The notes under the pieces are model-generated. The model was not told the DNA's origin, made no database searches, and saw only the letters and a list, made by a program, of their open reading frames with translations. From NCBI GenBank assembly GCA_044892525.1, contig CM097887.1, positions 61,194,001 through 61,258,000 of the forward strand: 64,000 nucleotides of DNA, read 5' to 3'. Position numbers and translations under genes: made by a program. The DNA comes from Schmidtea polychroa (lineage: Eukaryota). Shown here in pieces: positions 691 to 62,326 of the stretch (position 1 is the stretch's first letter; every line of letters begins with the position of its first letter).

Positions 691-2210
691 ATCTAGGTAA
701 TGAACGTGTTATTGCATATGGTTCACATACAATGAGTAAACATGAAATAGGATACTGTATCACGAGAAAGGAACTTTTAGCCATTTATTACCTTGCACAG
801 CACTTTAAGCACTATCTTTACGGCAAGCGATTCCAGCTAAGAATGGATCACAAGGCTATAACATTTATGATGACAACAAGAAAACCTATAACGGCACAAT
901 TTCAAACATGGATAAACTTCTTGAGTAGTTTAGATATGGATATTAAATATCGAAAAGGAATTGACCATTCGAACGTTGACGCGTTATCGAGAGATAAATG
1001 TGGGAGATGTACACAGTGTATGGAAATTCATGAAGATGCCAAGACAGAGAAAGTAAAAACCAGATTGTTGGCAATGACAGCTACTAAACATGGATTGCAA
1101 TGGCAAAAAGGTAATGAAGAGATAGAACATATGAGAAAAGCAATTGATAAAAATGAGACTACAAGATTTAAAATCAACGAAGATTTAATTTTAATAAGAG
1201 AAAATAAAATTTGGATTCCAAAAGAAAATAGAATAGAATTTGTCAAAGACATGCACAAAATGTTGTGTCAGACTGGATGCAAGAAGGTAATCGATTATAT
1301 AAAAGTTAATTACGATATGGAGGAATTAAATACAATCGTGACTCAATATATTCAAAGTTGTGAAATATGCCAGAAACGAAAAACATTGACAACAAAAACA
1401 AAAGAAATAATTGTAAAAATACAAGTGGCGGAACCGTTTGAGGTTATAGCAATAAATTTTTGTGGACCTTTGCAGGCAAACATTCATGAAAAGAAATATA
1501 TTTTGGGAATTATAGATATGTGTAGTCGATACATTTCATTGACAGCAGTAGCAAAACAGGACGAAAAAACTACAGCGGATACTATTGTGAAATTCTGGAT
1601 ATTAAAATACGGGGCACCGAGAATTATTCATGTTGATTGTGGGAAAACATTTGAGTCTAACTTGATAAAAGAGTTGGCTAAGAATCACAATATACAGCTA
1701 CAATTTTCTAACCCTTATCATCATAACACTAATCGTTTGATTGAAAGACAATTTCGAACAATACGAGATTTTATCAGTACATCATTAAGAGATAAACTTA
1801 AGAGGATTTGGGTTGAAGTGTTACCTGAAATTGAGTTTACTTTAAATTCTACCATTCAAAGCACAACTGGAAAGAGTCCATCAGAAGCAGTATTTGGTTT
1901 TCGGATATCTAGAGAATGAAACAATAATAAAAAAATATACAACGATAGAAATAAAATAGTGGAGGAAGTGCAATCAAAACAAAGAAATTTAAATTATAAA
2001 AATGAGAACCGAATACACCGAGAATTCGATATAAATGAAAAAGTTTTAGTTAAAGTAGATTTGAGAAAAAAAGAGGAGGGCCGATATACAGGATCTTTTG
2101 TCATTGTTAGAAAGATCCATGCAAATAGTTATGAATTACGAGACAGAGATGGAAAAATTATAATTCGCAAAGTTGAATGGCTAAAACCTTTTAAACAGGG
2201 AAGATGTTAG
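691..2210 (+). pseudogene. Ty3/Gypsy pol 3' part (RNase H, integrase Zn-finger/core, C-terminal SH3-like), degenerate
   Basis: RNase H: VIAYGS..MSKHEIGYCITRKELLAI..HFKHYLYGKRF...DHKA. Integrase: CEICQ, AINFCGPL (first catalytic D appears as N), IHVDCG..F, IERQFRTI. 1959-2210 is in the same frame after one premature TGA at 1917-1919. Confidence 0.92.
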
Positions 2211-5400: not shown

Positions 5401-8262
5401 TGTGACGCATGAATTGTCTATATTAAAATCAATTATAAAAAAAATTCAGACTTGAGATTATTATTCTAAAATTATTCAATTTCTTTTTATTTGTAATAAA
5501 CATTGTCTTGATTTTCAAAATTCGCGTTTTTGCTAATAGGTATTTTAATGTCAATTATTATTTGTTTAATTATAGGAAAATCAAGGCATCTATAAGTTGT
5601 TTATTATCATTCAAAACATGTTCTATTTATGCAAAATTATGTATTTTTAAATTGATACATAATAATTATTTTCATTAAATTAAAATTTCTTAATAAAATT
5701 ACACAAGTTCTTATAAAGACAAACGTAATATTAGCTTTTTATTATTTAATGCAGAGTCTCTCAAACCTTTTTTACTTGGCGACCATTTTAACGCAAGTAA
5801 ATATTTTTACGACCCTGGGTAGTTGGAATTACCCATTAAAATTACGAATTAAAACATTTGCTGATATTAAATCAAAAGCATAATTTCGAAAGATTTTTTG
5901 GTATACAAAAGAATAAAATTTGATAATACTAATAAAAACAAAGATAAATTTATACTAATGACCTAGATATGTGTTTGTTTACTTTTATATAAATCTTGAA
6001 AGAATATTAAATACTACATGGCGTTTTACAGAATTGACCGATTTTTTAATTTTATATATGTTAATGCTGAAAATGACACTTCACATAAATATGTTGTACA
6101 AAATTGTAGAAGTATGTTTCGAGACCCATTTCAGAGTGTTGGAAATTATACCCTAATCCCCACCCAAAATTAATTTAATGGTATTTTTGGAAAAGCTAAG
6201 TTTTAACTCTGTCCTCGATAACTTGGTAAATTCTTCTTAGGGGTGTAATGGTAAGTGACTGACATTAAACATTTCAATTGAGTATGGTTTTTGAATCGAA
6301 ATTTCTTTTTCAACATCAAAATTTGACGGAAAATATTTTTGAAAATGTGTTTCCCGACACTTCAATTGATCAATTATAACTTTTAAAGATATATATCTGG
6401 AAAGGTTATTTTAAATTATAAAATTATTATTTTTAAATTGTAATAAGCAGAGTATTGAATTGATTGTCAGTGTAAAGTGAAAGTTATTTGTGATTATCAA
6501 TAGAGATTTCTGTTGTCAAGTGTTATTTGTGGATCAGTCAAAGACACGCTTAGAGTCAGAGTAAGAACTTTAAATTTATCACCAACCCAATAACCCAACT
6601 ATACTGTAGGGACATATATTGTCCCAGAGAATTTCTAATAATTACTAAAATAATTTAAATGCTTACAAATGCATTGAGACCTGGGATTTTAGTACTGTAC
6701 GGTCATAAGCTCGTCAAAAAGTTCAAACCTGTCTGCTTTTTTTCTTTTCTATAAAATTTTGTCAGTCTATTAATTATTAAAATAAAAAAATCGTATTGAA
6801 AGGGTAAAATTTTTTTGGATTATTATTTGCGATTGGAAACTTAATACATAATATAACTCAAATAAACTTTTATACATACTTGTCAAGGAAGAACAGTGTA
6901 ACAATGTTACACTATAATTCTGTAAGTTAAAATTTTACACTAAAATTCAGGACAAGCTATAATATCGACTATTTATCGTTCATATTCTTTGCAACAAAAA
7001 TACAATAGGACAGAATAAAAAATAATTTGACGACTGCCAGAAAACAACTTTTATTTTATTTGTTAATTTCCAAAAGCGAAAAATTATTTACATAAACAAA
7101 AACTTAACAAAACAAAATATTATGAAATTTCATATATTAATACATATTATTATTATAAAGTAATTAATTCATTTAAAATATTTCTGAATAGCTACTTGAT
7201 TTTTACTATATTCTTTCGGTTTGGATTTGTCACCCTGGTATCATCTGCAGAAGTACGGTTCCTCAGCCAACTTGTTACATAGGGAACTGCATTCCAAGTT
7301 TTCAATGGGTGATCAATTAAGTTAAAAGTAATCAAATTTGATACGTTCTGCACTGTTAATTTGGCTCTGAAATTAGAAAATTCTGAATGACTCTAAAGAT
7401 AGAGACCAATCTTGCTGAAATATAAATATATAATATAAATTCAAATTTAACTTTTTATAGTTATTAAACAAATATTGTTCGAATTATTTTTCATGATATA
7501 TTGTACTACTTAGAGTTTATAATGTAAACCTACCATTGGTCGAAAACACTTAACAATCAATCCGTTGGATTTGAGATAATTAAGCTAATTGATGTCTTTA
7601 GTTTTCTAAATGTAGAAACTTACACAAATTATTTTTCATCGCTAGTCATTATTTTCTTCCATTTGATATTATTTTCGATGTATGTTAAATTTTTTTTCAT
7701 ATATCTTAAAAATCAAACTGGGATCCTGACAAATTTCTTTCCCATAGGCTCAAGAAATTCGTCTCTACATAAGTCTCTTTAAGCTTTAAATTTCCAGCAA
7801 ATTTGATTTTTCCCGCCTGTATAATATTTAAGCTCTTCAAGCATCTATAAAACGAATTTATAAATATAATTAATAATAATATTTGATTAATTACTGAAAT
7901 TTGCCTGGGCCCAAAATTATTTATCAACTTGTACTTATTTTTTTACTTATTTTGTACTTATTTTTTATAACTAATAAGATAGCCTTTAAAATACAGATAA
8001 GTTAAAAATAGTTTTTAGAATTCTTTATAATCACATTCAAAAAATATTCATATTAATAATCACAAAATTGTTGTCTAATTATTTGTTAAAAACAAAATAT
8101 TCAATTTCTAGATAAATTCAAGCGTTTTGATGAATTAAATTCTACAAATGAAATTAATTTAGCAACACTCCGCTGTGAAGAAAATAACAAATTCCCTAGG
8201 TAGGATATATATTAAAAACTTCATTTAATAAAATTAATAATTAATAATTACTATTACTCGCT

Positions 8263-8944
8263 CAGTGGCGTAGTGATGAGGTGGGAAGGGTATCATAGCC
8301 CAAGACAAACAAGATTTTCCGAAAAATTTCAATTTTTATTTTGGTCTATTTCTGGGAAATACATTTTAAATTAGGAATTATTGCAATATAATTAATTATT
8401 CCGATTGATTTGTCTGATAAAATATGTTATAAATAATGTTTGCAGTAAATCAATCAAATATATCCGTATACAAAACGTTCTTTCATCTTTCTTTCTGAAC
8501 ACTATGTCTGAGAATAACAATAGTTTTATTTTTTTATTTTTTTAAATGAAAAATTCAGAAAAATCAAACAGAAATATTCATTGTAATTCCAGACGTTTTG
8601 GAGTTCAAGGATGTTGCTTATTTAAAATTCAGTAATTATATTCAAATAATATCGAAATTATTATTCGTGGATTCAGAATATTTTAGAACGAATCCAGTCT
8701 AAATGCAGTAAAATTTAAAGCTTAACCTGAGCATGTATTACAGTGTAGTATTTTGTAGAAGCGTATTCATGTAGCAACTATTCGTATTACATATTATAGA
8801 GTATTTTAAGGTACTGCATTATATTAATATTTGTATTATATTCTTATTACAAATATATTTTATATATTATATTACTGTATATTTTTCGGGAGGTGCCAAA
8901 AGGGTATTGTGCCCTGGGAACTAGTAATGCTGACTACGCCACTG
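8263..8944. mobile_element. Non-autonomous hAT-like element (MITE) with CAGTGGCGTAGT TIRs
   Basis: CAGTGGCGTAGT at 8263 and ACTACGCCACTG ending at 8944. Flanks ACTCGCT / ACTTGCT form a near-identical duplication. Confidence 0.8.
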
Positions 8945-11399: not shown

Positions 11400-13913
11400 T
11401 AGGGCTTGGAAGAAACAGGAAAATTTCGAAAACCGGTTTACGATTATTAAGATGTATTTATATAAACTATTCTATTTATATCATTTATATTTTATTATTT
11501 GAATGTTGTGGTATGTTGAAATTTTTCGAAATATTATTTGGATTTTAATTAATTCCCCAGAAATGAATTAAGAAAATACTTTGTTTAAATAATATATAAT
11601 TATTCACTACTTTGAATTTTTTAACGTCTAAAATTAAAACGAATCCTAACATTGCGACCACGCCTATGCTGTGGTTTATTAGAACACCAGAAACATTCGA
11701 AATCGGCAATGACAGAAAAATTTATCGAAGAACCAGATAAATTTTTGGAACTTACTCAGACAGCCGAAAAACACAGAGGAGTTTTTATCAATGGAAGCAA
11801 CGCGAAAGTTCGAGGAAATGGATCCTGAAATTCACTACAAGAAAAGAATCCACGATGCCTTTATGAAGCTATCTAACTTAGCAAATGATCTCAACGAAGC
11901 CTTATCATTTCGAAGAGGAGGAAAAACAATTAATGAATTTTTTAAAATATAGAGAAGCTAGCAAAGAATGTAGTCAGGCACAATCTAACAGAAGAAGATA
12001 TGAAAATATTTTTTATCCAAAATTCTCTCGACAATAGAAATTATAAGAAAGATTTAAAATTACAAGGACCAAAAACATTCGAAGAAATAAAAAATCGATT
12101 TGTCAAATATGATGATATTATAATAGAAATTGAAATCGAAAACATTGCTAAGATACAGCATGTAAAGAAAAATTATGCTAAGGTAGCGATGTTGAATCAA
12201 GGACAAACATGGAACCAAAGAAAACAATATCATCGTCAAAGGAATGAAAGAATAGAACAAAGTCGGACTGTGGGACGACCGGAAACAAATACTCAAAGAT
12301 CAGGAAATAGAAATGAGTGGGAAAAGACCAGAAATCAAAGACAACTTCGAGAAGAACAACAGTGGCCCACGAGACATTTTAACGGATCGATTAGGAGAAA
12401 TGTTTATCCAAATCAAGATAATCGCATGCGAAGATGTTGGGCTTGTAGAGAAGAAGTTCATCTAAGATCAAAATTTCAAATGTAACTATTGTCACAAGAA
12501 TGGACACTTCAAACACTAGTGTTATGAAGTTAGTCCACAAAGGAAGTTCCAGAATTCTCGGTACATAGCTGCTTTCGGAGACGAGTGCGAACGATCGGAG
12601 CAAGGAGATGACCCAAAAGAATTTTCTCCGACAACCGGGTAAGTGATCGGAGCGATAAATTGAATGTAAGTGATATTTCGAACAATTTTTGCGTGGATTG
12701 TGAATGTATGTAGGACCTAAATTAGTATGAATGTTATTTGAATGTTGATATGTATTTTTATAATAGTTTGAATGAACTTAATAATTACAATATTTATGAT
12801 TTATATAATTTAAATGAAAATAAATTAATTTTTAAACCATATCGCTCTAAGTTAAGTTAGAAGTCCGAATACTTTCAATATAAAAGTGGAAAATTCTAAA
12901 GAATTTATAATTAATTATAACCATAATGTAGGAAGACCCAGTGTAGAAATTTAAATAAATAAAGAAAAAGCAATGTGTATGCTTGATACATGGGGGAAAG
13001 ATTAGTATTTAAGAATACGAGATTTATAAAAGATTTGACAAGGTAACATTGGAGAAATGTGATATTGAAGGGAAATATGCAAACAGCAGTGGCATAACTG
13101 TAATGAGAAAGATATATATATATATATATATAGCTGTAACTAACTGTAAGGGGTATTTCAAAACCAATGGAATTATATGTTACTCGAGGATTTGTTCCAA
13201 AAATAATTGGGGGGATAAATTTTTTAATGGAATTTAATATATATTTACAAAGAACCGATATTGAGAAATATGAGATAAGTTATATTGAACAAAAGAAAGA
13301 GGATTTTAAAAAAATGGAAAAAGAAGATAAAGAAATCGAGAAATTGATTGAAGAACATTATTATGAAACATAAATGGGACATTAGTAAAACAGAAATAGT
13401 ACAACATGAGATGATTTGACAAATTGAAGGGCTCCCACAAGCACATTTTAAAACTGAAATTTGAAATATTTTCTATACTCCTGATTTTTTGCTGTTCATA
13501 TTTAAGCTAAAATAAAAATTATTTTTAATATATTTTAAAAAAAAACATTTTTTTAAATAAATTAAATCGGTAGAACATGAAATTCATAAAAATAAAACAA
13601 TATTCACCACTAAAAACAAATTATAAAAACAATAAAATATAGTTTTCTAATATTTAGCAAATTGATATAAAACAATATATTTTAAGAAAATGTGCTAAAT
13701 ATTAGAAAACTATATTTTAATGTTTTTAAGATTTGATTTTAGTGCGTGACTATTCTATTTTAAAATATATTGAATTTCGTGTTCTATCAAATGTATTTAT
13801 TAAAAAATTTATCAATTTAAAAAATATATAATTAATAACCGGTTTTCGGTTTTTCGAGAACAAAAAACTGGTTTTTGGTTTTGAAAAATTTGAACACCGG
13901 TTTACAAGTCCTA
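11400..13913. mobile_element. hAT (TAGGG-type TIR) non-autonomous element with perfect 8-bp TSD
   Basis: TAGGGCTTG at 11400 and CAAGTCCTA ending at 13913, with AAACCGG/CCGGTTT subterminal repeats. TSD CTTGACAG at 11392-11399 and 13914-13921. Confidence 0.88.
11450..13420 (+). mobile_element. Ty3/Gypsy 5' fragment: LTR end, PBS, gag with two zinc knuckles, aspartic protease, start of RT; degenerate
   Basis: LTR end ...CCTAACA (11651) followed by PBS-like TTGCGACCAC (resembles tRNA-Arg PBS TGGCGACCAC). Gag from ~11708 with CWACREE.HL.SK. and CNYCHKNGHFKH.C. Protease MLDT(W)G and IIGGINFL, then pre-RT KWDIS.TEIVQHE. Multiple stops and frameshifts; left boundary approximate. Confidence 0.85.
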
Positions 13914-15788: not shown

Positions 15789-16894
15789 ATTAACCTCAAT
15801 ATACAAAAATGTATGTAGTCGGAATTAAAAATTACAAATTGTTTTAATGGAAATATTTTGGATAGCTATATTTTAGCGTATGCTTATCAGACAAGAGATC
15901 AAAATTTGTCAAAAGTTATGATACATATGTTTTGCTTCATAACGTCACAGAAAATTAATTTTTAGTTTTGTCACCCCAGTGTTATATTTTAGTTATATTT
16001 ATATTCTAGTTGTCGATTTGGTGTTATATTTTTCATTCTCTTAAAATTTTTTAAATTTAGTTAAATTAAAATCAAGAGTTTATTTCAATGTTCTGAATTG
16101 GCTGCACATATTATCATTAATTTGACTTTAATTGTAGAGGGTGAATTGCAGCGAATACATCTTTCAGGAGATTTGTATGGGATGGAAAATATAGTGTTTT
16201 TAAAAATTTCCTTAATAGTTCTAAAAAATATGAAACTCTAAATGAAAGTAATGAAACCAAATAACTAAGCCAATAAAATGGAATCCTAAATCAAAATTCC
16301 AATTTTCAATATCAATTTAACTTTAGATTTTAATTTCCATTTCTAATTAGTTTGAAATATTATTTTATTTCGATTATAAAAAATGTTTTTCCCGTGGAAT
16401 GTATGTATATATTCAGAGTATCAGTTCCTGATCCAGACCCAATAAAAACAATTTCTGACATGGGATACAACAGTTCAGATCAAAATTTGACGCTACTGGT
16501 AGATTGTAACTATGATATCCAAAGGTTTGTTGATGAATACCATAGAAGATCTTTAATGGAATAACAATCTATGAATTTTCTATTTATCAAATCTATACGA
16601 TCATTTGTCAAACAAAAATTTTAAATAAGAAGTCAATAATTTTATTTTTGATATAATATATAGAATTATTTTTAATCTTATAAATCAGTAGTTTCCATTG
16701 TATAGGTCTCAGGTATTTGTCTTGTATATGTCTTCACTTAGGCGAACTGAAGCCATCACCTCAGGGCGCCAAGCAAAATGGGGTGCTTATATTTAGTAAA
16801 TAAGAAAAAAATACTGGTTTTCTGTATACGAAAAATTAAAAAAAATCTTAAGTTATGTTGGGCTAGAACTGATTTCTAGACCCAAACTTATAAT

Positions 16895-17518
16895 TGTGAC
16901 TGAAATGTGTAGGTACACAACATGCAAAAAGCAAAAAGTATAGTTAAATAGTAAAATTACACCAAATAAACAATATTAATTAAAGGAGAAAACAACAAAA
17001 GCATAAACACAGAAATTAAATAAAATTATACCAAAAGCAAGAAGTTATGCAACATCGAACTCAAAAATAACCAAATAAACATAGAGTTACAAAAAACAAA
17101 CTCGAATAACTTAAAAGACGGTAAAAATAGAAAAAAAATTCCAGAAAAACCCAGAACATTCCATAAAAATGGCGATGACCATCACAAAAACCATCTAAAA
17201 CCATAAAAAGGAGAGAAAATAAATAAATTAGTATTAAAAATAAAAAAATCTTAAAAAGAAATTCGTAAAATATCAGTTAAAAATAAAAATTAAACTAAAA
17301 GTAATATGGAATGTTCTGGAACCGTTCCAAATCCATCATGGACGTAAAAATAACAAGAAATAATTAAAAAATAAAAATTATGGCACTAAAATTGCCATTA
17401 AAAATATCAAAACTACAAAATAGAAAATTCTGGAATAAAAAGAATTCGAGTTTGTTTTAATGCATCAATACATACACGTGTAGAAAATAGGTATATATAC
17501 CGACGCATTTTAGTCACA
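16895..17518. mobile_element. Putative solo LTR (TG...CA, ~620 bp)
   Basis: Terminal inverted repeat TGTGACTGAAAT / ATTTTAGTCACA (11/12 match). Strong strand asymmetry and GGAATGTTCTGGAA/TTCCAGAA motifs are typical of LTRs. No TSD found. Confidence 0.55.
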
Positions 17519-17669
17519 ATCAAATCTTTTTGTATGCCAAAAATTTTCGCAGCAAATTTAAACAACACCGAAAGTAAGGACTATTGTCTGCATATATTTT
17601 ATAATTGTTATCTTATTATTCTGTTTTATTATATTGATTATTATTATCTTTTTGTCTTTTTATTCTACT

Positions 17670-18000
17670 ATTACGAAACAAGAGTGACCAGCATCGTCGC
17701 TGACGGGTTATAGTCACGATACTGATCAGCCTTATTTCCAACTACTATTTCACATGCACAAATTCGGGTCTACGACCCTACATGCACAAAATTTCATTTT
17801 CTTTTAACCGGAAGGTCGCCACGAACAAATGGTTTCTAACCAGGAGTAGGGCGGGTAAATCCATCCAGGTAGTTGGCATAGTCGTAGGGACTATGCGGAC
17901 GAAATAAAATTTGGGAAAGTAATCGCGGGAAACATAATACAATAAGGCCTATCGTACCGTATTCAGTTGAGTCGGGAAAGTAGGAAAATTTTAATTAAAT
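17670..18000 (+). other. GC-richer, hairpin-dense non-coding island (structured leader?)
   Basis: Stems: GTGAC..GTCAC enclosing CAGC/GCTG; GGGTC-TAC-GACCC (17766-17778); GGTT-TCT-AACC; GCATAGTC-GTAGG-GACTATGC (17876-17896). Confidence 0.5.
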
Positions 18001-18356
18001 CGACCTTTCGGTAAATCACATACATAAAATGTACACTCAAACATTCTATGGGAAATACGTCATTAGGAACATCTAAACGGGAAATATCCCAGACTCAAAT
18101 TATCACAAAAGTTCTCAAGTAGTCGGCTAATTGCACAAACTATTATTCAGTATGCTCAATATTAACTATCATTAATAAACTACTAATATTATTTATAATT
18201 TTATTCAATCATAAATGTAATCTAGGCCACGTTCGATGGTGTATTATTATAAACTAAAATCATTTCGTAAAATTTTCATACTTACCTTCATATGTATTGA
18301 AATTTAGCTTATATAAAATCTTTAAAGATTTTTTTTGTGTGTCCTAATAATACCAT

Positions 18357-18773
18357 CATCTTTGGGATCATTATTATTATCATTATTAATTTTCTTAAAA
18401 TTACATTAATAAAGTTTATGTCATTACCCTATAATAGCATATATCAGTGTATTAAACTTTATTAATATATATTTAACTTACATTATGTTTAGAAAATTAT
18501 AAATTTTCTTAAATGACCCCCACCCCGAAATATATATTCATTACCCATTACACAAATATCCCAAATGAACTTATTCTAATATATATTTGGATTGTAGTAT
18601 GTTAAAAATGATAATTTATCAATTTTCATCTTAGGATCATAATTATTATCATTATTAATTTTCTTAAAATTACATTAATAAAGTGTATGTCATTACCCTA
18701 TAATAGCATATATAAGTATATTAGACTTTCTTAATATATATTTGACTTACATGATGTTTAGAAAATCATAAAT
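18357..18773. repeat. Direct repeat, ~147-bp block with 270-bp period
   Basis: CATCTT.GGATCAT...GTCATTACCCTATAATAGCATATAT...GTTTAGAAAAT at 18357 and 18627. Confidence 0.9.
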
Positions 18774-19904
18774 ACATAACTGTCCTAAATTACCTTATTT
18801 TAATTGTAACAGGTTAAAAAGGATAATTCGTAAATTTTCATAACTGCCCCTTGCACAAATTGACTTGTTGTAATATAGATTTAACTTGCAATATATCTAG
18901 AATAATTACTTATAAATTTTTATAAATGGCCCTTTTTGATTCCTATGGTCTTTAATGATTACCTAGAAGTATTTGTTTAATCTGCTTCTAGGCCTAGTTA
19001 GCTTACATTACTTTAGAAATATCATTGTATATCTCAGAGCGAAAAATGAGTCCATAACTTTCCGAAAATGATTCCCCGTATGTGGTAACCTTATAAACTA
19101 CGAATTTACATTTATTATTATTATCATCATTAGNNNNNNNNNNNNNNNNNNNNNNNNNNNNNNNNNNNNNNNNNNNNNNNNNNNNNNNNNNNNNNNNNNN
19201 NNNNNNNNNNNNNNNNNNNNNNNNNNNNNNNNNNNNNNNNNNNNNNNNNNNNNNNNNNNNNNNNNNNNNNNNNNNNNNNNNNNNNNNNNNNNNNNNNNNN
19301 NNNNNNNNNNNNNNNNNNNNNNNNNNNNNNNNNNNNNNNNNNNNNNNNNNNNNNNNNNNNNNNNNNNNNTTATTATTACTGCTATTAGTGTTGTTACCAT
19401 TAACATTTTCACCCTTGTCATTACCATTACTATTACCACTATCATTATTATTACGTTATTAAAATAATTATTATTTTTTTAAATTAAAATTTTAGCTAAA
19501 ATTATTGATTTTTGGGATCCCCCTATGTCTAAATTTAATCGCAATGACCCTACCCTCCAATAAAATTTCAGGAAACTACTGAAATCTATTTTTAGTAACA
19601 ACCCTCCCCCCCGGAAAACGACGTTAGGATCAATAATTTAAATTTAAGTTATGTAGTTATATATGGATATGTGTGTATGTCCGCGTCTGTACAAGTGTTT
19701 ACCCATATTAATAATAGCCTCATAGAAGTATGGTTGCCTCCCAGATCAACGGAGACTGAAACACTTTAGTTCCTTTATCTACCCCAGAAAAATAAAATTA
19801 TGCCGAAGTTACCTTAGAAAACTGAACTATTTGCTTAGGATTATTTAAAAATTAAAAAACTCAAAAATCTAGCTCAATTTATTAACCAAAATGACAAAGT
19901 GAAA

Positions 19905-20405
19905 ATGGAAAACGACATGAATAAATAGGAATACAAATTTAAATCACTTCGGAGGCTCGCTTCGCGAGAATTATCTGACCAATTACTCCCATCACTGTAA
20001 ATTCACGAGAACAACTGAACAATCCCTGAACCTCCTCGAGTGCAAGTAGTGAACTTAAAATTCCAGGGTGTAGACCCGAAATCTGAAATAATTATTAATT
20101 CCCAGCTATACCCTCGCAAATTCAGAACGCTGGCCTATTCTGAACTCCCATCAAACAGTGGCATCTCGAATTTATTATCTAAGTTGTCATCTTCAAATTG
20201 AAAAGTTTGGAGATTCATTTCTGAAATTATACAAATTTCAAAAATTTCAAAAGCTAATTTACCCGTTAAGTATCCATTGATGAGGGAGCTACTTACAACC
20301 ACTATGGTCAGGGATTCGCAAGAGCTGAATGTAAATTCAGACAATTTACAATATCCGCTTCCCATAGTGGGTCCTAGTAGTATAAATTTTGCCAAAAAAT
20401 TATAA
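19905..20405 (+). pseudogene. Degenerate orphan ORF (cassette gene B, 167 codons, 4 internal stops)
   Basis: One frame from ATG 19905 to TAA 20405 in a GC-enriched island. The N-terminal SLRRLASRELSDQLLPSL resembles a BC-box. The coding call is tentative. Confidence 0.35.
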
Positions 20406-20765
20406 ATAGAGAATTCTAAAAATTATTAAATGAAAGATAATATTTGAATTAGTATAAATTGGTATAAATAGTTAGATTAAATCTTTGAATGATTTAAACA
20501 ACCACTATTGGAAGTTTGATTTGTAAAATTTTAAATGCTCATTTCTACTGTATCAATCATTAGTTCATCGAAACCAAGCTCATGGATTTCCACTTTAAAC
20601 ATACGAACTGCAATTCTGTAACTGATACTTATAATTTGAATTTTATAATTCTCTAGCCAACCTGAATTACATCGAAAATCAAAAAGGGGAAAATTAATTG
20701 GCACATTAAGTTCATTTTTTCACCACCTAAAATATCATTGCAATACGGGTCACGTTTGAATTTAA

Positions 20766-21353
20766 ATGCAACAGTGCGTTAAACGTCTTGGGGTAACCAG
20801 ACGTAGACGAGCGAATAGAAATTTTACTAATATGTTCTCTTAATATCTCAGGCATGCCTACTATTAGCCCAGAAGACAGCCACGCGAATCCTTCGGCATC
20901 TACATCCAGACTCAACCTAAACCACGCGGAGGTAGACGAAGTCGTCAGATTGACCAGGAGGAAGAACTCACTCGCCTGAGGTCCAGGTGGATCTGGTATA
21001 AGATTCATGATTGGACCTACCAGAATGTGGTCCCGGTGATCCCGAAGGTGGAGCCGTATATCAACTATACTTCATTGGCTTTGAGCGACGCATTCGACGA
21101 TGCGAAGGAGGCGGTGGACCGGTTGCATCGGCTCGAAACATCAGTCCTGGCCGGCGAGCTGGAAGACATCGACGGCTACGCCCGAGCCCAATGCCATCCA
21201 AAGCGGACCGCAGCTCTTCGCCGGGGGCTGGAATGCCCAAGAAGTCCTCGACGGGGATCGGAACAGTTGAGAAAACGCGGGCGCCCACGAAAAACCGCCA
21301 GCTCAGCCAAGGAGATTACCGAACTGAAAACTAGCGCTGTACGACATCCCTAA
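20766..21353 (+). pseudogene. Orphan AT-hook protein gene (cassette gene C), probably spliced, with one early stop
   Basis: Frame open from ~20868 to 21353: PRRQPRESFGIYIQTQPKPRGGRRSRQIDQEEELTRLRSRWIWYKIHDWTYQNVVPVIPKVEPY...QLRKRGRPRKTASS. Candidate intron GTGCGT (20774) or GTAACC (20793) ... TACTAAT ... CTCAG (20851). Sequence is GC-rich. Confidence 0.55.
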
Positions 21354-21362
21354 CATCTGTGT

Positions 21363-21641
21363 TGTGACTGAAGTCTTGTGATAAAAATAATTATCATGTA
21401 ATGACTCCGTTATTAATGTACCTTGCGATATTGTGTACTGGGTTAGATCACTTTGACCCAGAATTAAAATAATATTCGTTATGTCTTAGTAGTTTGTATT
21501 TAGTTAAATGTTTGGTTGGGTTTTGGTTGTCGATATTAATTTAATTGTGTGTATTGCTTGATTCTTGGTAATGTTCTTAGCGTTAACTATTATTATTATC
21601 GACTACAATTTTCCGTAACATTGACAGCCGATAGGGTTTGA
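21363..21641 (+). mobile_element. Putative 5' LTR (21363-21620) plus degenerate tRNA-Ser-type PBS
   Basis: Begins TGTGACTGAA and ends TTCCGTAACA (imperfect inverted termini). It is followed by TTGACAGCCGATAGGGTTTGA, similar to the tRNA-Ser PBS TGGCGCAGTCGGTAGGAT of 17.6/297-type Gypsy elements. No second LTR seen. Confidence 0.45.
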
Positions 21642-21769
21642 TAAGATTCATAGAACTCGGTTTTGGTGCGCGTAGGGGAGGGCTGCGACGAGGAGATTAC
21701 ATTCATTTAGTATTAATAACGTGCGTCACTCAATGCTGAGGTGAAAATTTCTAATGTTGTTTATTTTAG

Positions 21770-22238
21770 TGTTAAAACTCCTGGAAGAAATGCGAGCAGA
21801 TAGAGAGAATAGAGAGAATACCGGGCCAAGCTGGCACGAATCAAGGCCCATTGTCGGAACTTCGAGAGTACCTGGTTCCCGCCAGTAGAGATGAAAAAGC
21901 GGATGAAACTGATCACTCAACTGCAACTCCAGAGTGCCCAAGATCAGGTTGAGTTGCGGGCCCTCCGCCTTAGAGTGAAGGAGCTGGAGATCAAAGTTCT
22001 CCAACAGGATCTCGACCGAGATGTCATATCCAAAGTCCGGCCCATGAGTGAGCTGCTCCACAACCCAAAGGAGCGCGCATCACTGAAAGTCCCGAGGAAG
22101 AAGATCCGACCGGGTAAAGCGGCGCGGGCGAGAATGAGACAAGCCAGCCAAGCCCAATTAACACATCATTCTGCGGTGTCAGAGCCTACTCCGAAGGAAT
22201 CATCCACGACACTAAAATTTTGGAATGTGTTCTCCTAA
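21770..22238 (+). pseudogene. Orphan coiled-coil/basic protein gene (cassette gene D) with E-x-TWF-x-P motif
   Basis: Candidate intron 21721-21769 (GTGCGT..CTAAT..TTTTAG). A frameshift occurs near 21810 (AGAGAGAAT duplication), then an open frame EYRAKLARIKAHCRNFESTWFPPVEMKKRMKLITQLQ...KELEIKVLQQDLDRD...RKKIRPGKAARARMR to TAA 22238. AATAAA follows the stop. Confidence 0.6.
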
Positions 22239-22477
22239 TAAATATTTATTGGTGTATTCATATCTGGGCATTTCGATTTTACCATAACGTTGATTATCAT
22301 AACGGGGACTAAAAGAAACCGGACATAGGCCTTCTATCGGCAGTCCGTGAACCCCAGTGGGTGCTAGACAATTATAGTATGCTAGGCATGCTCACTTTTT
22401 GCTAGTACCCAAACCCTTGATACAGTACCAACGTTGATTACTCAACGGGTATCAAGTGGTCAGCTATAAATTGTATC

Positions 22478-22539
22478 CTGGGTTACGCTGCAAACAGCAG
22501 GAGTAGGTAGAAACTTTGAAAGTACCTGTAACCCACCAG
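22478..22539 (+). ncRNA. Predicted compact three-way-junction RNA structure, function unknown
   Basis: GGGTTAC (22480-86) pairs with GTAACCC (22528-34), enclosing GCTG-CAAA-CAGC and AGGTA...TACCT hairpins joined by an AGGAGT linker. Confidence 0.4.
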
Positions 22540-22869
22540 TTATTTCGTATTTAAATTGTCAAAAAAATTTATCGGTTAATGGATTCTGGAAATTTTTTTA
22601 ATTAAATTAACGTAAATTTTAAATTAAAATAACATTTTAAATTATAAAAAACAATGTTAAATTTTTTTGAGATGGGGTGCAATAATATTTTTGGCCTGCC
22701 AGTTAGTCAAAGCTGGCCTTGGTAGGACTCGACTCATTGATGGGCAGCGTGCAAATTGAAAAATATTTTTTAGCAATGTATGCGCAATAATGGAATTTTA
22801 GACATTCACATAAGAATTACTAATTCTATTTAGTTACTTTGTATTTGTTTTCAAACTGTCAAGTTTTTA

Positions 22870-23400
22870 TTTTCAAAGAAGAGAAATCAAATCGAATGTC
22901 CTTGGCTTGGTAGATGGCAGGGCTTTCTCTATTGCTGAAGGAATTTCTAAAGTCCTCGATGAATTTCACCTATGGAATTCAATACAGATGATTGTTGAAG
23001 ATACCATAGCGTTAACACTGGAAAAAAGAATGATGTTGTTGTAATATTGCAACGAATGTTCACAGAGAAACGCATCAACAAACCTTAGTTTATCAATTGT
23101 CAACACCATGTATTAGATAGAATCCTCAGTTTGGTGATGGATGAAGAACTTGGAAGTAAAACACAATCGCCAAACATCGAATATCCATTTATATCTCAAC
23201 TGTTGAAGGAGTACGAACAACTGAAAACACAGTTTGATAACGGAACAGAAGTAATTCTCGAAACATCAGGCTGGAGAGATGATATGAAATTTTTGTTTCA
23301 TCTCACTCGAGTGTTCCGATTTTTTGAGGAAAAGTGACATTTTCCATTGATCAAGTTTAAGAAAATACCCAATTATCCGTCGCCTCAAATGTCATATTGA
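22870..23400 (+). pseudogene. hATm-like DDE transposase fragment
   Basis: Reads MIV.DT..(V)NTGKKN.VV..LQ...C QHHVLDRIL...SPNIEYPF...WRDDMKFL. The DTxxxNTG, CxHH and RDD motifs resemble hATm-type transposases. Frameshifted. Confidence 0.65.
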
Positions 23401-25407
23401 CTATGACTTTCGGATAAAAATTTTTCGTCAAAGATTGAAATTTCACGTTACAATAAAAATATCTATAATTACTCTTAAAATTGGTTTAGATTCATTACGT
23501 AAATAATTATTAAATTGGAAAATAACAAAAATGAAGTCATAAAATATTTATATTTGATTTTCACAATAACAAAATCCTGTTTAAAGATTGCATAAAGTTG
23601 AATATTTAAGAAAACTTAGTAAAAATTTCTGTAATCCAAATAAATAAAGTAATTATCCTTCAATACAAAATTATTTTGTTAAATTTATTAATGAGATAAA
23701 AGCACAATTAAGTTATCAATTATTTGCAAGTTAATAATACAAAAGTAATAAACAGTTTATTATTCATTAAACTATAAATGAAATCACAAATATTATTTAT
23801 ATTATTAAATTAATTAATTTTAATACAATCCATTTGCAATATATCATTTAACAATATGCCATTAAAATTGAATATTAAAACAATTTTCAATTCAAGTAAT
23901 TTTTTTTTCAAGGTAATTTAAATTTTAAAATATAAATTTAGCAAACAGCTATATTTATGTGAATATCCGACGCATACTAAGTGCAATAAATTAAAAATCT
24001 GCATTTTTCAGTACAACATGCATGACAATTGGTTACTGGAAGTTGAAATCTTAAAAAAGTAAATTTTGGTGCAACGCTATTTCTCATAAGACCTAAAATG
24101 AAAAAAAACAAAATGATTAAGTTATTTAAATGATAAGCTATTTAAACTTAACAGAATTCAGGACCATATGATTTTTGAAAACAATTTTCACACAATTTTA
24201 TGAAATAACAGAACAACAATATCGTTATTTTCAAATTCATTAATTAATTTTCTAAAATTAATAATAAATAAAATAAAAACAATATTCTTACATGTTAAGC
24301 AATAAATTAAGTTTATTATGCCATTGAAACGAATTATTATAAACCATTGATTTTATAAATAATATTTTTTAAAAAATTAATAATTAGTAATATTGTTTCT
24401 CAAATTTAAATTAATGTTAAAATTTACGGTCAGTTTAAATGCTATTGAAACAAGCGTTAAATTTCGAATAATATCTCATAAAATTTATTTTGTAAGATAT
24501 TAAATTAATCAATTTATAATTACATTTTTTTATATTAAATTATTTAAATTAAATCTTGGTGTAGTTTATAACTAGGTGCATAAATACTAAATTGACAATT
24601 ATTTTCGTCTGTGGGGTATTTTTTAAGTGAAACGCAATTAGTGGACATGGTATTTTGTTTAACGTTAAAATGAATTAATTCGAATGAAATGTTCCAAAAA
24701 ATTATGGCACCAATCATATGTATTACAAAGTTTTACGAAAAGTGAACATTATTTATAAATGGTCATGAATCAGTTCTTGACAACAAAATTGTAGGGTATT
24801 AATTTTAAAAAATTGTTTGAAAAAAGACCATTAAAAAGGTAAATGTAAAGTTGCCTAATTTATTTTTTGAGTAAAGAGTTACCGTTAATTAACTTGGAAT
24901 AAATATGATTTTGTGAATTATTCTAGGATTTTGATTATTTAATCATTGCCACCGATTTAAATAAAAATGTGGTTGTGATATTTATACAATTTAGAATATC
25001 GTTGTGATTTTCTGTTTTTGTCAAGACGCTTCTAGCCATGTTACATCTATTCGCCCATAATAAACCATTTTAAACCCAAAAATATTTATAATTCTACTAG
25101 TGTTGTTGAATAAGTATTAAACATTCAGTGGTTTTGTTGAAAAATTATGATGATAACAATTATAAACCTGATCAAGTCAATATAAGATCAAACTAATAAA
25201 ACATCAACAAATACAAATTAAATTACAGAAATAGTCATTTTTGAAGAAATATAAAATAATAAGAATTGTAAATACAATAAATTGAAGAAATAAAAATTGT
25301 TAATATATTAAAGATAAATTCAAATTTTTTTAGGGCAAAATTATACACAAAACATTAGCTTAATTTTAAATATAAACTATTTCTATGACTTTATTTATAT
25401 ATATTAA

Positions 25408-25640
25408 CCCTTTCCTATTTTGTGTCTATAAAAATATGACAAAAAAAAATTAACCATTAGACCAATGATTATGCCCAATTGCAACTTGCAAATCGTCAGC
25501 TTCTAAGACACTCCATCTGGAAGAAATGGAAGACAATTTCAGTTGACGAAATGAAAAAAAATAATTTTTTCAAAATTTTTAAAAAATTTTATTAGGATTG
25601 GAACGGGTGGGACACATAAAATAAAGAAGATAGGAAAGGG
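25408..25640. mobile_element. piggyBac-type MITE
   Basis: TTAA|CCCTTTCCTA ... TAGGAAAGGG|TTAA. Confidence 0.85.
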
Positions 25641-26163
25641 TTAAATCATTTTTTGAAACATCAAAAATATCTTCGGAACTAGGAATAATTTCCTTTTAAA
25701 TGTTAAATTACGGTCGTATTTATTGTGTTGAATTTTTCCTATTCACGGTATACCGTCTTTCAAAATGACACATAATAAAAAATGCACACAAACCTAATAT
25801 TGAGAAAAGATATTGAAATTTAGCATTAAGACGCAAAAATTGGTATATAAAGGTGAGTCTCAGATCACAATTAATCACTTTTATTAAATCAAAATTCTTA
25901 ACTGTTTTAGCGAAATAAACCTTCAATAACTTCAACTAGTTTTGACTTTCATACGTATCTGTTTCATTTCAATTTATTTTTGATCAAATGCATTTGGGTA
26001 ATTTTCATTTTTGATTGTATTTTATATACTTGTAGTGATTTTATTGTAGTGACTGTAATTTATATACATTAAAATTTCAAAATTAATTATGGTCGTTCTT
26101 TTTTAAATAGTTAAATTCAAGATTTTATAATCGTATTTGTTTTTATTTTTTTATTTATGAAAG

Positions 26164-26565
26164 ATGCAGGTCGACAAAAATCAGTATTCTTATGATTTCT
26201 ATATAAACAATCAGGAACCTTTTGATGTCAGCAAGTCAGGGAACGTTTTACGTATTCCCAATTCGATGACACGAGAAGGTTTCGATCATACAGTAGATGG
26301 TCGTGCCGAAGTCCTCTAAATACAGACCACTTGCGATCACTCTCTGATCTTTTTATTAAATTCACAGCGATTCAGTTATCACAAAAATCTTCATAACAGC
26401 TGAGATCGAATCTAGGTAGGGTAAATTAGAATTTATGGAACAGTACTTCAACATGGTGAAAATTCTGTATAGTGACTTCGTAGGGTTAGTAGAGTATATA
26501 CCATTATTTTTCGTAAAGATTGGAGTACTATCAACAGTCAAATTAGGCATGTTCCACCCTATTTA
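26164..26565 (+). pseudogene. Possible degenerate orphan coding island (cassette gene E)
   Basis: GC-enriched island with broken + strand frames (MQVDKNQYSYDFYINNQEPFDV...; FMEQYFNMVKILYSDFVGLVEYIPL). No recognisable domain. Confidence 0.25.
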
Positions 26566-26853
26566 TTATTACTATTATTATTAATAGTATGGTTATTATT
26601 TTCATCATTATTGTTGTCATTATTATATTTACTAGTATTATCATCGTCATTATTATTACTAATTTTTATAGCCTTACTATCCCTAGCATTACAATCTTGA
26701 TCATTATCATCAATTTTTGGCTACATTATTTACTTTTTTTTCTAGAATCCTCATTATTGTAAGCATCACCGCTCTTAGGATATCTATGAGTAGCACTATT
26801 GTTCGTATTGATATTTATATTAGGATTATTATCATCAGTACTGTTAGTAGTAC

Positions 26854-26894
<41 letters not shown>

Positions 26895-27790
26895 TTATTA
26901 GGATTATTTGTATTATCATTGTTGTTATTATCCTGCTTGTGATTATCCTTATTATTATTACTATCATTTCTATAATCACCGGTAGTATTATAACTATCAA
27001 AATAAGGATTATTACTACTATTAAATTCTATTAATATTATCATTATTATGAGTATTATTAATATAAGGATGGTTTTTGCTAGTATAATTCGCCTTAGTAT
27101 TATTATTATAAGACTATTATTATTATTAAAATTAGTGTTATTAATATTATCATCAGTGCTCGAAGTGGAACAAAATATGTGCCGGGATAGGCATGCTGTG
27201 GCACCCGGGATTCCAGGCTTTTATGCAGAAATTTTCAGTTGGGGGTGTTGCAAAACTTTGGGGGGTGTCCAACAAATTTTTTTTGGGGGGGGGTGTCCAC
27301 CCATTTAATCATAAGTTTCAGGGGGTGTACCTGTTTTAATGTGGGGGGGTGTCAAACAATTTTGGGGGGTGGGTAAATCCCTGCGGGATTCTCATTTTTA
27401 ACCAAGCAAAATGACAGAGATTTTTTGCATGTGTAAATTTGTCTGATAAATAATCGGAAATTTTGTTTCAAATATAAAGCGTCAACGTCTTACTCTGATA
27501 GTCCTTTTGGTAATAGCCCATTTTCTCACATTACCCCAAAAAAACTGCAAATTCACTTAACTTATAAAATGATTAGGCTATAAAATGAAATAAGTACCGG
27601 GATAAACCTATAGATTATATGAAATGAAGTGCCGGGATGCAATTCCGCCTACATAATCAATGCCGGGATAATATCCCGGCTATCCCGCCTCACTTCGAGC
27701 ACTGATTATCATCATCCTCACCCGCCATACTAGTATTTTTTTATTATTATCCTTCAAATTATCATAATGAGTATAATTTATTGGGTATGA
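26565..27790. repeat. Degenerate (ATT/ATC/GTT)n low-complexity tract interrupted by a MITE; a similar tract lies at 19100-19460
   Basis: Trinucleotide-periodic, T-rich on the + strand; the source of the poly-Ile and poly-Asn ORFs in the track. Confidence 0.85.
27154..27704. mobile_element. hAT-type MITE with perfect 8-bp TSD
   Basis: TIR CAGTGCTCGAAGTG / CACTTCGAGCACTG. TSD ATTATCAT at 27146-27153 and 27705-27712. Internal GCCGGGATA and GGGGGGTGT repeats. Confidence 0.93.
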
Positions 27791-28276
27791 GTACCATTTT
27801 CATGATAATTAGGACTAAATAGAGTCGTCACTCCCTTGTGACCAGTATTAGTTTTTCTTCCATAATTTGTATGAGGTATTTTCAGCTGGGAATTAAATAT
27901 TTCAATTATTTATTAAGATAATATTAAATGATAAATAATGAACATTTAAAATAAGTTTTAAAATAAGTTTTAAATTAAAAAGAGATTTTGTTAAAGATAA
28001 ATTTTATATAAATACATTTTAATAGTAAATAATTTTTAAATAAATACATTCGTTTAAAAATTATACAATATTTCATTAAATAAATACTTGTTATTATGAC
28101 GTTATCTTTTGAACCTGATTTAAAAAATAATTTAGATGATGTTCTAGCAGCTTCTAATAATCTATATTACTATTTTCCTTAATGTAGTAGACTGAAAACT
28201 TTGATTAATCTAAATTTCTCTTTGAGATGTTATACGGTCTTTGACCTGCTATGAATTTATATCCTTTTCATTTTAG

Positions 28277-28797
28277 TAATTAAATACAAATCGACAAAGA
28301 ACGTTTTGAGACCATCTTTTTCCTGCGCAAATAAGAACGCGCAAAACGCCGTGCTTCGGGAGGAAAATATACTCTTGCGCACCAAGATTGATAGGCTTGA
28401 GGGGACATGGTTTACCCCAGGCCAGGTGAAGGAAGCAAACCAGAAGGTGTTCCAACTAGAAAATTGTCGGGACAACCTTATTGAGGAAAGTCACACAAAA
28501 TATGCCTCGATACAGGAGTAAATGCAGGCTATGTATCAAGTCTACACCCAAAACGAACTCTAGGCACAGATCCAGAACCTTTCATCTGTGTTCCAAGCAA
28601 ACCCCATACCTGCCCACCATCTGGCATATGACACAGTGGCTGCCAGATCTTCGGCCAAGTGAGGGGTTCTCAATGTTGGTTTTGAGTCCTTCAGCACTAA
28701 TAGCCCCATTGTCGAAGACCTTCGCAAAATCGATTGTGGTGAGTTTATGTGCCACCAATCCTCCAATCAATATGACGCCACCATGACCGAAGCGTAA
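28277..28797 (+). pseudogene. Orphan coiled-coil protein gene (cassette gene H), paralog of gene D, 3 internal stops
   Basis: After acceptor CCTTTTCATTTTAG (28276), a single frame reads ...NAVLREENILLRTKIDRLEGTWFTPGQVKEANQKVFQLE...SIQE*MQ...NEL*AQIQ...SSAK*GVL...TMTEA*. GC-rich. Confidence 0.6.
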
Positions 28798-31053
28798 ACA
28801 AATATCTAGATCTGAAAGAAACTTCAGGAAGCGGGCATAGCAGGCCGCCGCACAGTTTCCTGGTTAATTAGGTCAACTTACCCGAAATCAACATGCATAC
28901 TTTTTGCATGGATTTTTCATGGACGCTAGGAGCAAACAATCTGATTAGCTTTGAACATTTACCATTAATAGATTTTTGATTATTGATTTCGATTTTTTTA
29001 TTTATTAAATTAACAATATTCAAACAAATTAACAACTAATAATCGTAATCAAACTGTATCAAACTGAAAGATATTTTAATAACATTTTGAAAAACATTTT
29101 TTTAATCATATAAAAATTATTTTAATTTTAAAAATGCACAAATTGTTAACATTCTCAAACAAAAATCTTTTTTAAAATTAATATAAAAAATAAATTTAAA
29201 TTTAAGAATTAAAAATTGTTTAATACAAAAAATTTAACAAACAACAACATCATCCCAAATATTAAAGATACAGGTTAAATTATTTAAATACATTCAAAAT
29301 CACTATAGACTGACCACTTTGAATTAATATTCAACAAAACAAAACTGTTTTAAAAATGTTCAATATTTGTTTGGAAATTGCAAAACAAACATACAATATT
29401 AAAAACTAAGATAAATGAAATACATTAAATTTGGTCATTTGAAAAACTTTTAACTAATTTAATTAACTGGGGTCACGAAAATTTTTTTGTAAATTTTTTG
29501 GGCACAAAAAATAGTTTTGGAAACGCTGATTTAAGTTATTCTAAATATAATAATATTTTGGATTTAATACAGAAATATGAATTAAAATTATTTAAATATG
29601 AATAATAATGTGGTAATTTCTAAATCCTTGAGAAGACTAATTAGCCAACTTCGAGTCATCCGATGGAGCTAAAACTTGACAAACAGATAATGCATTTTAT
29701 TAAATGAGTCTCATTTGTAGAATCCCATTGACTATTTTACGGAACCCATTTTGAAGACCAATGATCTAGTTAAAGTAAGAATATTGAGAGTTTATGATAT
29801 GTCTACGGAATAGCTTATGTTGGAATTTGAAAAATGATACAAGAGTGGTTTTATTTTCAAGAAAAATGTTTTTTTTTGATATATTGCCACATTTAAGGCA
29901 TTCTTTGTTTATATCTATGGCTAATTGGGCAAGTACATCTTTCTCTTCACTTTCACTTTCACAGCCTTTGGTGGATTCTAATATTCTAATTATTATTTTC
30001 CAGCATTTGTAAAAGTTGAATTAAATAAATACTAAAATAAATAAATACTAATAAATAAATACTANNNNNNNNNNNNNNNNNNNNNNNNNNNNNNNNNNNN
30101 NNNNNNNNNNNNNNNNNNNNNNNNNNNNNNNNNNNNNNNNNNNNNNNNNNNNNNNNNNNNNNNNNNNNNNNNNNNNNNNNNNNNNNNNNNNNNNNNNNNN
30201 NNNNNNNNNNNNNNNNNNNNNNNNNNNNNNNNNNNNNNNNACATAACTACAAACAAGTTTGATGACAATGTAATTAAATGATCTATTCTCTATAATGACA
30301 ATGCAAATATATACAGAATACAAAAGATAAAAACATTCTCCACAACTTGTACCAGTAATTATCAGCAGGACTCGAAAGAAAATTTTATCAACTTTGAACA
30401 AGTTAGATTGCGGAAGTCAGCATCAAAAAACAATAAGTAAAGAAACAAATCATAATATCTTCATTGTCCTAAACGTCAAAGATATTGAGCTATGTATAGA
30501 GTAATTTTATCAATGATTAAGATGCCAGATAGCTGAGTGGATTGTGACATTTTGAGTAGTTGACAAAGTCAGTTGGTTGACTCCTCCATTAAATGAATAA
30601 GGTTTAACTGCGTGACCAACGATCTTTTTTCCATCTAACCAACTATTGTTTCACTGAGATTTCAGGCCGTACACGTGCACAATATCACCATAAATGCATC
30701 GTTGTTTCTAGTACATTTCAATCATCTATTTCGGAAATCCGCCGTTAATTCTCCACACAATAATTGATGCCATTGTTCTATCTAACTAACCTCTCTGTTC
30801 GTATTTCCGCTTTGATATTCTTACAAAATAACACATGAAACTAATTCACAATCAATTTACGAAAATAAAGAAGCATCTTCAGTTTAAATTGATAAGTATG
30901 TTAATTTAATTATTATTTATATTTCAATTTGTCAAATTAATGAGACTGCTACTTAAATTTTCAAGAAATTACATTTCCATGTTATAAAATGTAAATCAAA
31001 ATTGGAATGTAGTTTTTAAATTTTTAATAAATTTTGTTGTCTATTATCTTTAA

Positions 31054-61974: not shown

Positions 61975-62310
61975 TCAAATTGCAAAACAGTAATAACGTT
62001 TTCATAAAATTGTAACAAAGTAATAACATATTTCAGATAAATTTTCAACAGTTGTAAAATATTTAAGCAAATTGTAACAAGATTAGAAAATATTACAACA
62101 AAGTAGTAACATATTTCAGAAAATTTCAACAAATTTGTAAAATATTTATCAAATTGTAACTAAAATAATAAAAATATTGCAACAAAGTAATAAAATAATA
62201 ATGGTAATTAAGACAAATCAATACATTATTTCGAAGACGGACAACAAATTAAAAAGAATATTGTAACTAAAATAATAAAAATATTGCAACAAAGTAATAA
62301 AATAATACAA
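61975..62310. repeat. Degenerate tandem repeats (TTGTAACAAAGTAATAA-type)
   Basis: Recurrent TTGTAAC/TTGCAACAAAGTAATAA units. A ~47-bp block is duplicated at ~62154 and ~62261. Confidence 0.8.
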
Positions 62311-62326
62311 CATTTTAAACTCTAGA

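Follow-up and report, generated by a model that had tools for sequence, protein, structure and literature searches.

Complex retroviruses export their long unspliced RNA by means of Rev, Rex or Rem together with a structured RNA element, and some of them place open reading frames (ORFs) in the U3 region of the long terminal repeat (LTR). In mouse mammary tumour virus (MMTV) the U3 holds sag and an exon of rem, while in human T-cell leukaemia virus (HTLV) the element RexRE is located in the 3′ LTR (accessible text of PMC12789967). The Gypsy element Cer1 of C. elegans needs the spliced product CERV for RNA export (accessible text of PMC10309623). Planarians contain Burro/GYPSM1, giant Gypsy-like LTR retrotransposons that have been proposed to be proviruses (accessible text of PMC6431247, citing Grohme et al. 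2018 and Jurka 2007); Burro are the largest LTR elements described. We have studied 64,000 nucleotides of the Schmidtea polychroa genome (GenBank assembly GCA_044892525.1, contig CM097887.1, forward-strand positions 61,194,001 to 61,258,000), this whole stretch being termed the window. An initial annotation had presented two of its ORFs, D and H, as genes arising from an old duplication within a host orphan family. We find that both are decayed copies of an ORF borne in LTRs of a giant, high-copy Gypsy (Burro) retroelement, each copy belonging to a different family of it, and we propose, tentatively, that the intact form encodes a nuclear RNA-binding regulator that acts on a conserved hairpin at the end of the LTR.

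Gene D lies within a solo LTR of a Burro-type element, 5,683 bp in length (16856–22538, + strand), with TG...CA ends and a 4-bp target-site duplication. It is ~80–83% identical to both LTRs of a full-length element. A 4-bp duplication is also found at four of six other copies examined, and among the two that lack it one is preceded by the sequence that is found before 3′ LTRs. There is no primer-binding site or internal region at the window LTR; the primer-binding site follows only the 5′ LTRs of full elements. D is the second of two ORFs in the LTR (ORF2, 21770–22238, +), encoding a coiled coil, an E-x-TWF-x-P motif (21864–21881), a further coiled coil and a basic helix (~22095–22142). The window copy is frameshifted near 21808–21814, and an AATAAA directly after the ORF (22237–22242, +) is a candidate poly(A) signal. 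Gene H (28276–28939, +; motif at 28399–28416) belongs to another Burro family, whose LTR has a single ORF; what is left here is a truncated remnant of that ORF. Protein similarity extends over 28276–28849 and DNA similarity to 28939, with a premature stop at 28519–28521 and a frameshift near 28660, and downstream of it we find no LTR end and neither the box nor the hairpin of LTR ends described below. Thus the supposed two genes are both broken repeat copies.

These sequences are abundant. The first 28 bp of the D/F3 LTR, F3 being a third, D-related family, is matched exactly at 1,316 places of the 781-Mb genome, against none for the reversed control, and so the closeness of D and H to one another is unremarkable. 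Searching the same genome with D and with H gave at least 150 matches in each case (150 of 150 scored, from 4,086 and 4,627 first-look candidates respectively).

How secure is the relationship between D and H? The T-W-F sequences start at 21870 and 28405, as had been reported, and the two proteins align over 38 residues with no gap. Nine identities (R, E, T, W, F, P, K, Q and L) are present in this alignment, while the leading N said to be shared is not; in the window copy it falls where the frame is shifted, open-frame copies do not have it at that position, and it does not characterise the family. The DNA has diverged as described, being identical at 49 of 114 positions; of the 38 codons, 22 agree in their second position and 12 in their third. 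The local score of the pair is 47, with p = 0.0015 from 20,000 shuffles, yet 112 of the 34,449 pairs of window ORFs score as high, so that the pair is weak on its own. At the level of the family the homology holds. Comparison by hhalign of an alignment of 14 H sequences with one of six D/F3 sequences gives P = 95% and E = 3e-8 over 75 columns. With profiles made without the window copy, the other window ORF came second among 884 frames (E = 0.0066 and 0.0019). When the profile was built on homologs from outside this genome, H ranked first and D second among the window frames. No recognised family was found for the window ORFs, which are without a Pfam match at E ≤ 0.01, as the initial annotation had supposed. 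That D and H are a host orphan family arising from an old local duplication, or a chance match of motifs, is very improbable. The pairwise score taken by itself is within the reach of chance, but the profile-level homology, the presence of more than 1,000 copies, the broken state of both window copies, and the target-site duplications, LTR pairs, primer-binding site and internal Gag-Pol all argue against it.

Same-strand pairs of matches separated by 26–31 kb are LTR pairs. Over the longest shared block the LTRs are 98.7% identical in one D element (4.0 kb), 99.5% in two H elements (4.07 and 2.4 kb) and 99.8% in two F3 elements. The ORF is present in both LTRs of all five pairs, on the strand of gag-pol, with no further ORF between it and the LTR end. 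The D element is ~37 kb with LTRs of 5.75–5.83 kb, the H1 element ~30 kb with LTRs of 4.07 kb, and the F3 LTR is 5.0–5.2 kb. In both D and H1 the Pfam domains follow the order zf-CCHC, Monjiviricetes_fusion, RVP, RVT_1, RT_RNaseH and rve, which is found in part in F3. Ankyrin, MATH/TRAF and RING domains are also carried by D and H1, and BIR was found in F3 only. A single primer-binding site, which we take to resemble a tRNA-Pro site, is common to all four families. BCL2-like, SUMO-like and dUTPase-like motifs had no Pfam match at E ≤ 0.01 in the elements, a search at the level of HHpred not having been made; some of these were found with HHpred in Burro (accessible text of PMC6431247).

The parent elements are a match to the planarian Burro/GYPSM1 as described in the accessible text of PMC6431247. 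The shared features are a length >30 kb, multi-kb LTRs, very high copy number, Gag CCHC knuckles, MATH/TRAF, a protease followed by reverse transcriptase, RNase H and lastly integrase, ankyrin, BIR and RING, and a mononegavirus-like env in frame between gag and pol. They differ in that the same text does not mention an ORF for a protein, a splice acceptor or an RNA hairpin within the LTR. Nor are ORFs or an RNA element inside Burro LTRs mentioned in the literature covered, including the accessible text of PMC11410931 and PMC13238120; Grohme et al. 2018 and the Repbase entry are beyond that scope. While the Burro elements themselves are known, the ORF cassette and the hairpin in the LTR are therefore apparently undescribed, although they may have been annotated earlier. 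Two further ORFs of the internal region were observed. D, F3 and H elements have, between the primer-binding site and gag, a small ORF encoding a coiled coil and a C3HC4 RING (7812–8291, 8375–8869 and 4003–4482 of locus records L061, L065 and L113), which diverges faster than pol. The last internal ORF before the 3′ LTR (L064:1176–2006 and L067:8978–9649) has a hydrophobic, signal-peptide-like start and is without a Pfam match.

The family is under purifying selection, as had been suggested, with a ratio of non-synonymous to synonymous substitution (dN/dS) well below 1 for the D, F3 and H sets, at ~0.07–0.17 between subfamilies. These sets comprise distinct stop-free cores retrieved by protein similarity. 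In pairwise comparison at dS 0.1–0.7 the ratio for ORF2 is 0.07–0.14 over the two families, with values of 0.08–0.11 in D (19 cores) and 0.10–0.14 in F3 (24 cores); among near-identical copies it is 0.26–0.30, a rise that is expected from decay after insertion. The maximum likelihood omega is 0.13 for D, 0.17 for F3, 0.07 for H (mostly saturated) and 0.15 for ORF1. ORF1, which was not used for retrieval, is still constrained, with dN/dS of 0.12–0.22 between subfamilies. The corresponding ratio pN/pS is 0.09 in frame compared with 1.15–3.84 in four other frames, and 0.21 in the antisense frame that shares third positions. The selection acted on the replicating elements, and not on the window copies. 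In a tree, from which P0005 and P0014 were left out, D/F3 is placed on a very long branch (3.34, 100/100) and H does not separate from the outside homologs; we make no claim on the order of events.

Other homologs with the motif do exist, both as copies in this genome and outside it. A full hidden Markov model search of 1.84 billion representatives returned 16 proteins, with a best E = 2.8e-18. The ten that were looked up are unnamed singletons. Their closest matches in the S. polychroa genome are ~40–50% identical, so that they are likely to come from another species. Thirteen of the 16 are joined to unrelated host domains, and these fusions are probably gene-model chimeras that captured the TWF exon. 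The exon thus contaminates gene annotation as a repeat, and should be masked rather than counted as an orphan gene family. Helices strongly rich in Arg are present in several of the outside homologs, where a run of 15 residues may hold as many as 11 Arg, and a leucine-rich pattern resembling an export signal follows the helix in two of them, other matches to the pattern lying in fused host sequence. A word-index protein search with an H copy gave 438 candidates, none at E ≤ 0.001 (lengths 139–443 only), and no homolog was found in phage records, viral contigs or metagenome contigs.

The proteins of open-frame copies share a coiled coil that is broken at E-x-TWF-x-P and is followed by an Arg/Lys-rich helix. 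The proposal of a hinge within a coiled coil is in keeping with an AlphaFold model of an open-frame H copy, in which helices of residues 15–45 and 48–101 are separated by a break at W45–P48; a disordered linker, a basic helix (182–212) and a short terminal helix follow. The mean predicted local distance difference test (pLDDT) is 71 and the predicted template modelling score (pTM) 0.31, and the packing is not defined by the model. Of 12 long open H frames, 11 have the basic helix and 8 an acidic amphipathic motif at the C-terminus, counts that include LTR twins and near-copies. The basic helix is also present in all five D/F3 proteins examined, located 75 residues after the motif and with little tail, and contains 8–9 R/K per 15 residues in all ten own-genome proteins listed. 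ESM Atlas leads for the H N-terminus were all <0.9.

In the D and F3 families the LTR also contains ORF1, which in the window (20854–21353, +) has a W-I-W-Y-x-I-H-D-W core and a C-terminal AT-hook-like KRGRPRK (21273–21293), and is frameshifted near 20953. Its match to PF02178 (AT_hook) is 15.7 bits, under the cut-off of 17.4. The motif raises a different explanation, in which the LTR ORFs encode activators or anti-silencing factors operating on their own LTR at the level of DNA or chromatin (Tas- or Tax-like, or antagonists of piwi-interacting RNA (piRNA) or heterochromatin), and the hairpin, unconnected with them, serves priming or packaging as part of U5. We regard this as possible but on the doubtful side. 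It is favoured by the AT-hook-like motif itself, by the acidic amphipathic C-terminus of the H frames, by a weak ESM Atlas lead from ORF1 (L008:515–1012) to plant-mobile-domain clusters (0.84, with 130 shared features, where the threshold for a lead is 0.9), and by the repression of Burro by SMEDWI-2/piRNA (accessible text of PMC8532177), which would suit an anti-silencing role. Against it, the TWF protein has no recognisable DNA-binding fold in Pfam, in the AlphaFold model or among PDB sequences, where no homolog was found (best E = 0.41). The Arg-rich runs of the outside homologs are, we presume, more like RNA-binding motifs, and we count these against it too.

The way in which the ORFs are distributed between elements bears on the same question. 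Between full D and F3 elements the identity is 98.9% in reverse transcriptase and ~98% in integrase and env (dS 0.15–0.29), whereas it is only 47% in ORF1 and 43% in ORF2, with dS saturated, and their LTRs align only over the first 0.7 kb and the last 0.2 kb. The simplest reading, from the sequences of one pair of elements, is that the middle of the LTR was replaced by recombination. Such an exchange of the ORFs and LTR middle as one block, between elements sharing LTR ends and internal genes, is what one would predict of a protein that moves together with its DNA sites, as the DNA-level activator would. More generally it suggests that the cassette is a module of specificity or of conflict. 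Deeply diverged cassettes on near-identical backbones also speak for an alternative in which the ORF encodes a host-directed accessory factor, comparable to Sag of MMTV or lentiviral Nef, or a factor for incompatibility or superinfection exclusion; the TWF hinge would bind a host or viral protein, and alleles would be swapped in conflict. Burro contains many host-manipulating domains (BIR, TRAF/MATH, RING and ankyrin), and sag and nef provide U3-encoded precedents (accessible text of PMC12789967). We nevertheless consider such a factor unlikely. Neither a signal peptide nor a transmembrane segment is apparent in the sequences, purifying selection within families is strong, and a conserved basic helix suggests the nucleus or nucleic acid as its site of action. 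The D subfamilies are themselves mosaic. Locus records L003, L004, L013 and L015, compared with window 20957–22538, are ~90% identical over ORF2 and the LTR end and 72–74% over ORF1, a pattern that suggests recombination within the cassette as well.

A structured RNA is a further component of the LTR. The last 250 bp of the D, F3 and H LTRs share a conserved box (22330–22340 in the window, +) and an RNA hairpin (22417–22455, +) in which two covarying stems flank a nearly invariant 8-nt bulge. From 35 distinct motif matches we aligned 16, chosen to represent families, with near-duplicates and likely chance matches dropped. In this alignment 95.3% of cells are paired, nine of 12 pairs exhibit two-sided change, and the covariation score is 0.668. 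None of 500 shuffles reached this score and 11 of 500 reached the count of pairs; slid controls pair at ≤51%. Within a 1.5-kb flank, box and hairpin are found downstream on the same strand at 18 of 19 D, 27 of 30 F3 and 7 of 19 H loci, and at 4 of 15 further H-like loci, compared with only 0–2 upstream or on the other strand. The 12 of 19 and 11 of 15 H-type loci that lack them leave room for domesticated copies, the one further point for the host-gene explanation dismissed above as very improbable. The invariant part of the bulge (22424–22433) has complementarity to the opening bases of the LTR (16856–16861), and in part to those at which the primer-binding site starts; such sequences may pair over a long range in strand transfer or priming.

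Both ORFs of the D/F3 LTR are preceded by sequences resembling splice acceptors. The TWF exon begins at a predicted phase-1 acceptor (21768–21769, +) with a pyrimidine tract and YAG/TG, the latter invariant in 65 of 65 D/F3 locus records (some of which are the same place twice). A Met within the exon before the motif is present in 27 of 29 D copies and in none of 36 F3 copies, so that F3 needs an upstream partner exon. A predicted acceptor AG (20850–20851, +) precedes the ATG of ORF1, and by eye an AG is found shortly before the ATG in most H ORFs; the similar AG–ATG spacing in relatives of ORF1 is partly circular, the ATG having been chosen by its nearby AG. A phase-1 donor-like site lies inside the AT-hook in 16 of 25 F3 copies, and not in D. 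A flatworm spliced leader ends in AUG, and we considered this AUG as the start of ORF2; it was set aside because the exon is phase 1.

Taken together, the acceptor, the coiled coil, the basic helix and the conserved bulged hairpin fit a Rev-like logic best. The reading that we favour, at somewhat less than an even chance, is that the intact gene encodes a nuclear RNA-binding regulator of the Rev/Rex/Rem or Tat type, expressed from a spliced RNA and binding the hairpin at the LTR end. A spliced RNA would join a 5′ leader to the acceptor in the LTR, and the TWF protein would oligomerise through its long coiled coil, kinked at TWF-x-P. The Arg/Lys helix would bind the hairpin and double as a nuclear localisation signal. 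Binding would promote the export or synthesis of the unspliced ~30-kb genomic RNA, which itself contains acceptor-like sites; since the element would make spliced RNAs to acceptors near its 3′ end, the long unspliced RNA would still need export. In D and F3 the AT-hook protein of ORF1 would probably act on LTR DNA, and ORF1 and ORF2 would travel as a swappable cassette.

A number of observations weigh against such a regulator. The hairpin is ~90–120 bp upstream of the primer-binding site, and because of this position it could be an element for reverse transcription or packaging that is bound by Gag or reverse transcriptase. We found no splice donor common to D and F3, and assembled contigs of four sequencing runs over 20300–22600, which carry neither strand nor level, contain no canonical splice joint. 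One outside homolog matches Pfam REV (PF00424) over its Arg-rich part (E = 0.0013), but this is one of 16, is below the curated cut-off and is likely to be compositional, and none of nine own-genome proteins matches at E ≤ 1. In the D, F3 and H proteins of this genome nothing that follows the basic helix is a convincing export-signal pattern (one match falls inside the H1 helix), and D/F3 proteins almost lack a C-terminal tail. The acidic amphipathic end of the H proteins fits an activation domain as well, and the basic helix may serve for nuclear localisation and nothing else. Lastly, the dN/dS values are biased downward by the retrieval through protein similarity and the stop-free filter.

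How does the proposed regulator compare with those of retroviruses? With sag and Rem/RmRE of MMTV, Rex/RexRE of HTLV-1, and Rev, Tat and nef of HIV-1 it has in common an LTR ORF reached by splicing (here predicted), a small basic regulatory protein, and a structured cis-acting RNA in or overlapping the LTR (accessible text of PMC12789967). Sequence homology to these is limited to the one sub-threshold PF00424 match. Moreover this is a Gypsy lineage, with a cassette of one or two ORFs wholly inside an LTR of 4–6 kb, and a long coiled coil with the TWF hinge precedes the basic helix. Compared by description, CERV of Cer1 is likewise a novel spliced nuclear leucine-zipper protein of a Gypsy/Ty3 element that is required for export of genomic RNA, but it has 517 aa, shares exons with gag, contains a Cys loop and a G-like domain, and is not described as LTR-encoded in the accessible text of PMC10309623. 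Foamy virus Tas, also likened by description, is an element-encoded activator of its own LTR, and so may parallel the AT-hook ORF1 or the acidic tail of H; an internal promoter close to the end of env drives its expression (accessible text of PMC12789967).

In a wider form of the proposal, which we put forward only as a possibility and would not yet rely upon, Burro elements are complex proviruses in which the LTR is a spliced regulatory operon, comprising a Rev/Tat-like coiled-coil RNA-binding protein, the bulged hairpin as its target and, for some families, an activator with an AT-hook, the module being swapped between near-identical backbones. If so, each of >1,000 LTRs, solo LTRs included, is a potential self-contained source of a trans-acting regulator that could switch on related elements genome-wide. 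This would extend the logic of complex retroviruses (Rev/Rex/Rem and Tat/Tas) to a flatworm Gypsy lineage. With a proposed LTR-encoded regulator and a candidate RNA target in hand, transcription, export and the unspliced state of the ~30-kb genomic RNA become directly testable.

The remainder of the window contains other features. An Rfam scan of 16500–30000 gave no match, and no tRNA gene was found within the window. At 585–1919 (+) there is a fragment of RNase H and integrase of Gypsy type, from an ordinary LTR element (Pfam). A 179-aa frame at 11946–12485 (+) resembles the C-terminus of a retroelement Gag and is without a Pfam match, and at 27160–27705 a GC-richer island with G runs inside an ATT-rich tract is possibly a small non-autonomous insertion. 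Frames resembling major facilitator superfamily transporters (54860–56150, −; MFS_1 match at 55404–56150) apparently have few or no introns. An open frame of 1,203 aa (58120–61731, −) has motifs like those of family-B DNA polymerases, with no Pfam match at E ≤ 0.001 and related DNA at other loci; we liken it, provisionally, to the polymerases of Polinton/Maverick elements. Finally, minisatellite-like arrays occur at 57085–57625, 62257–62832 and 63230–63540, with periods of ~30/61, 144 and 18 bp.

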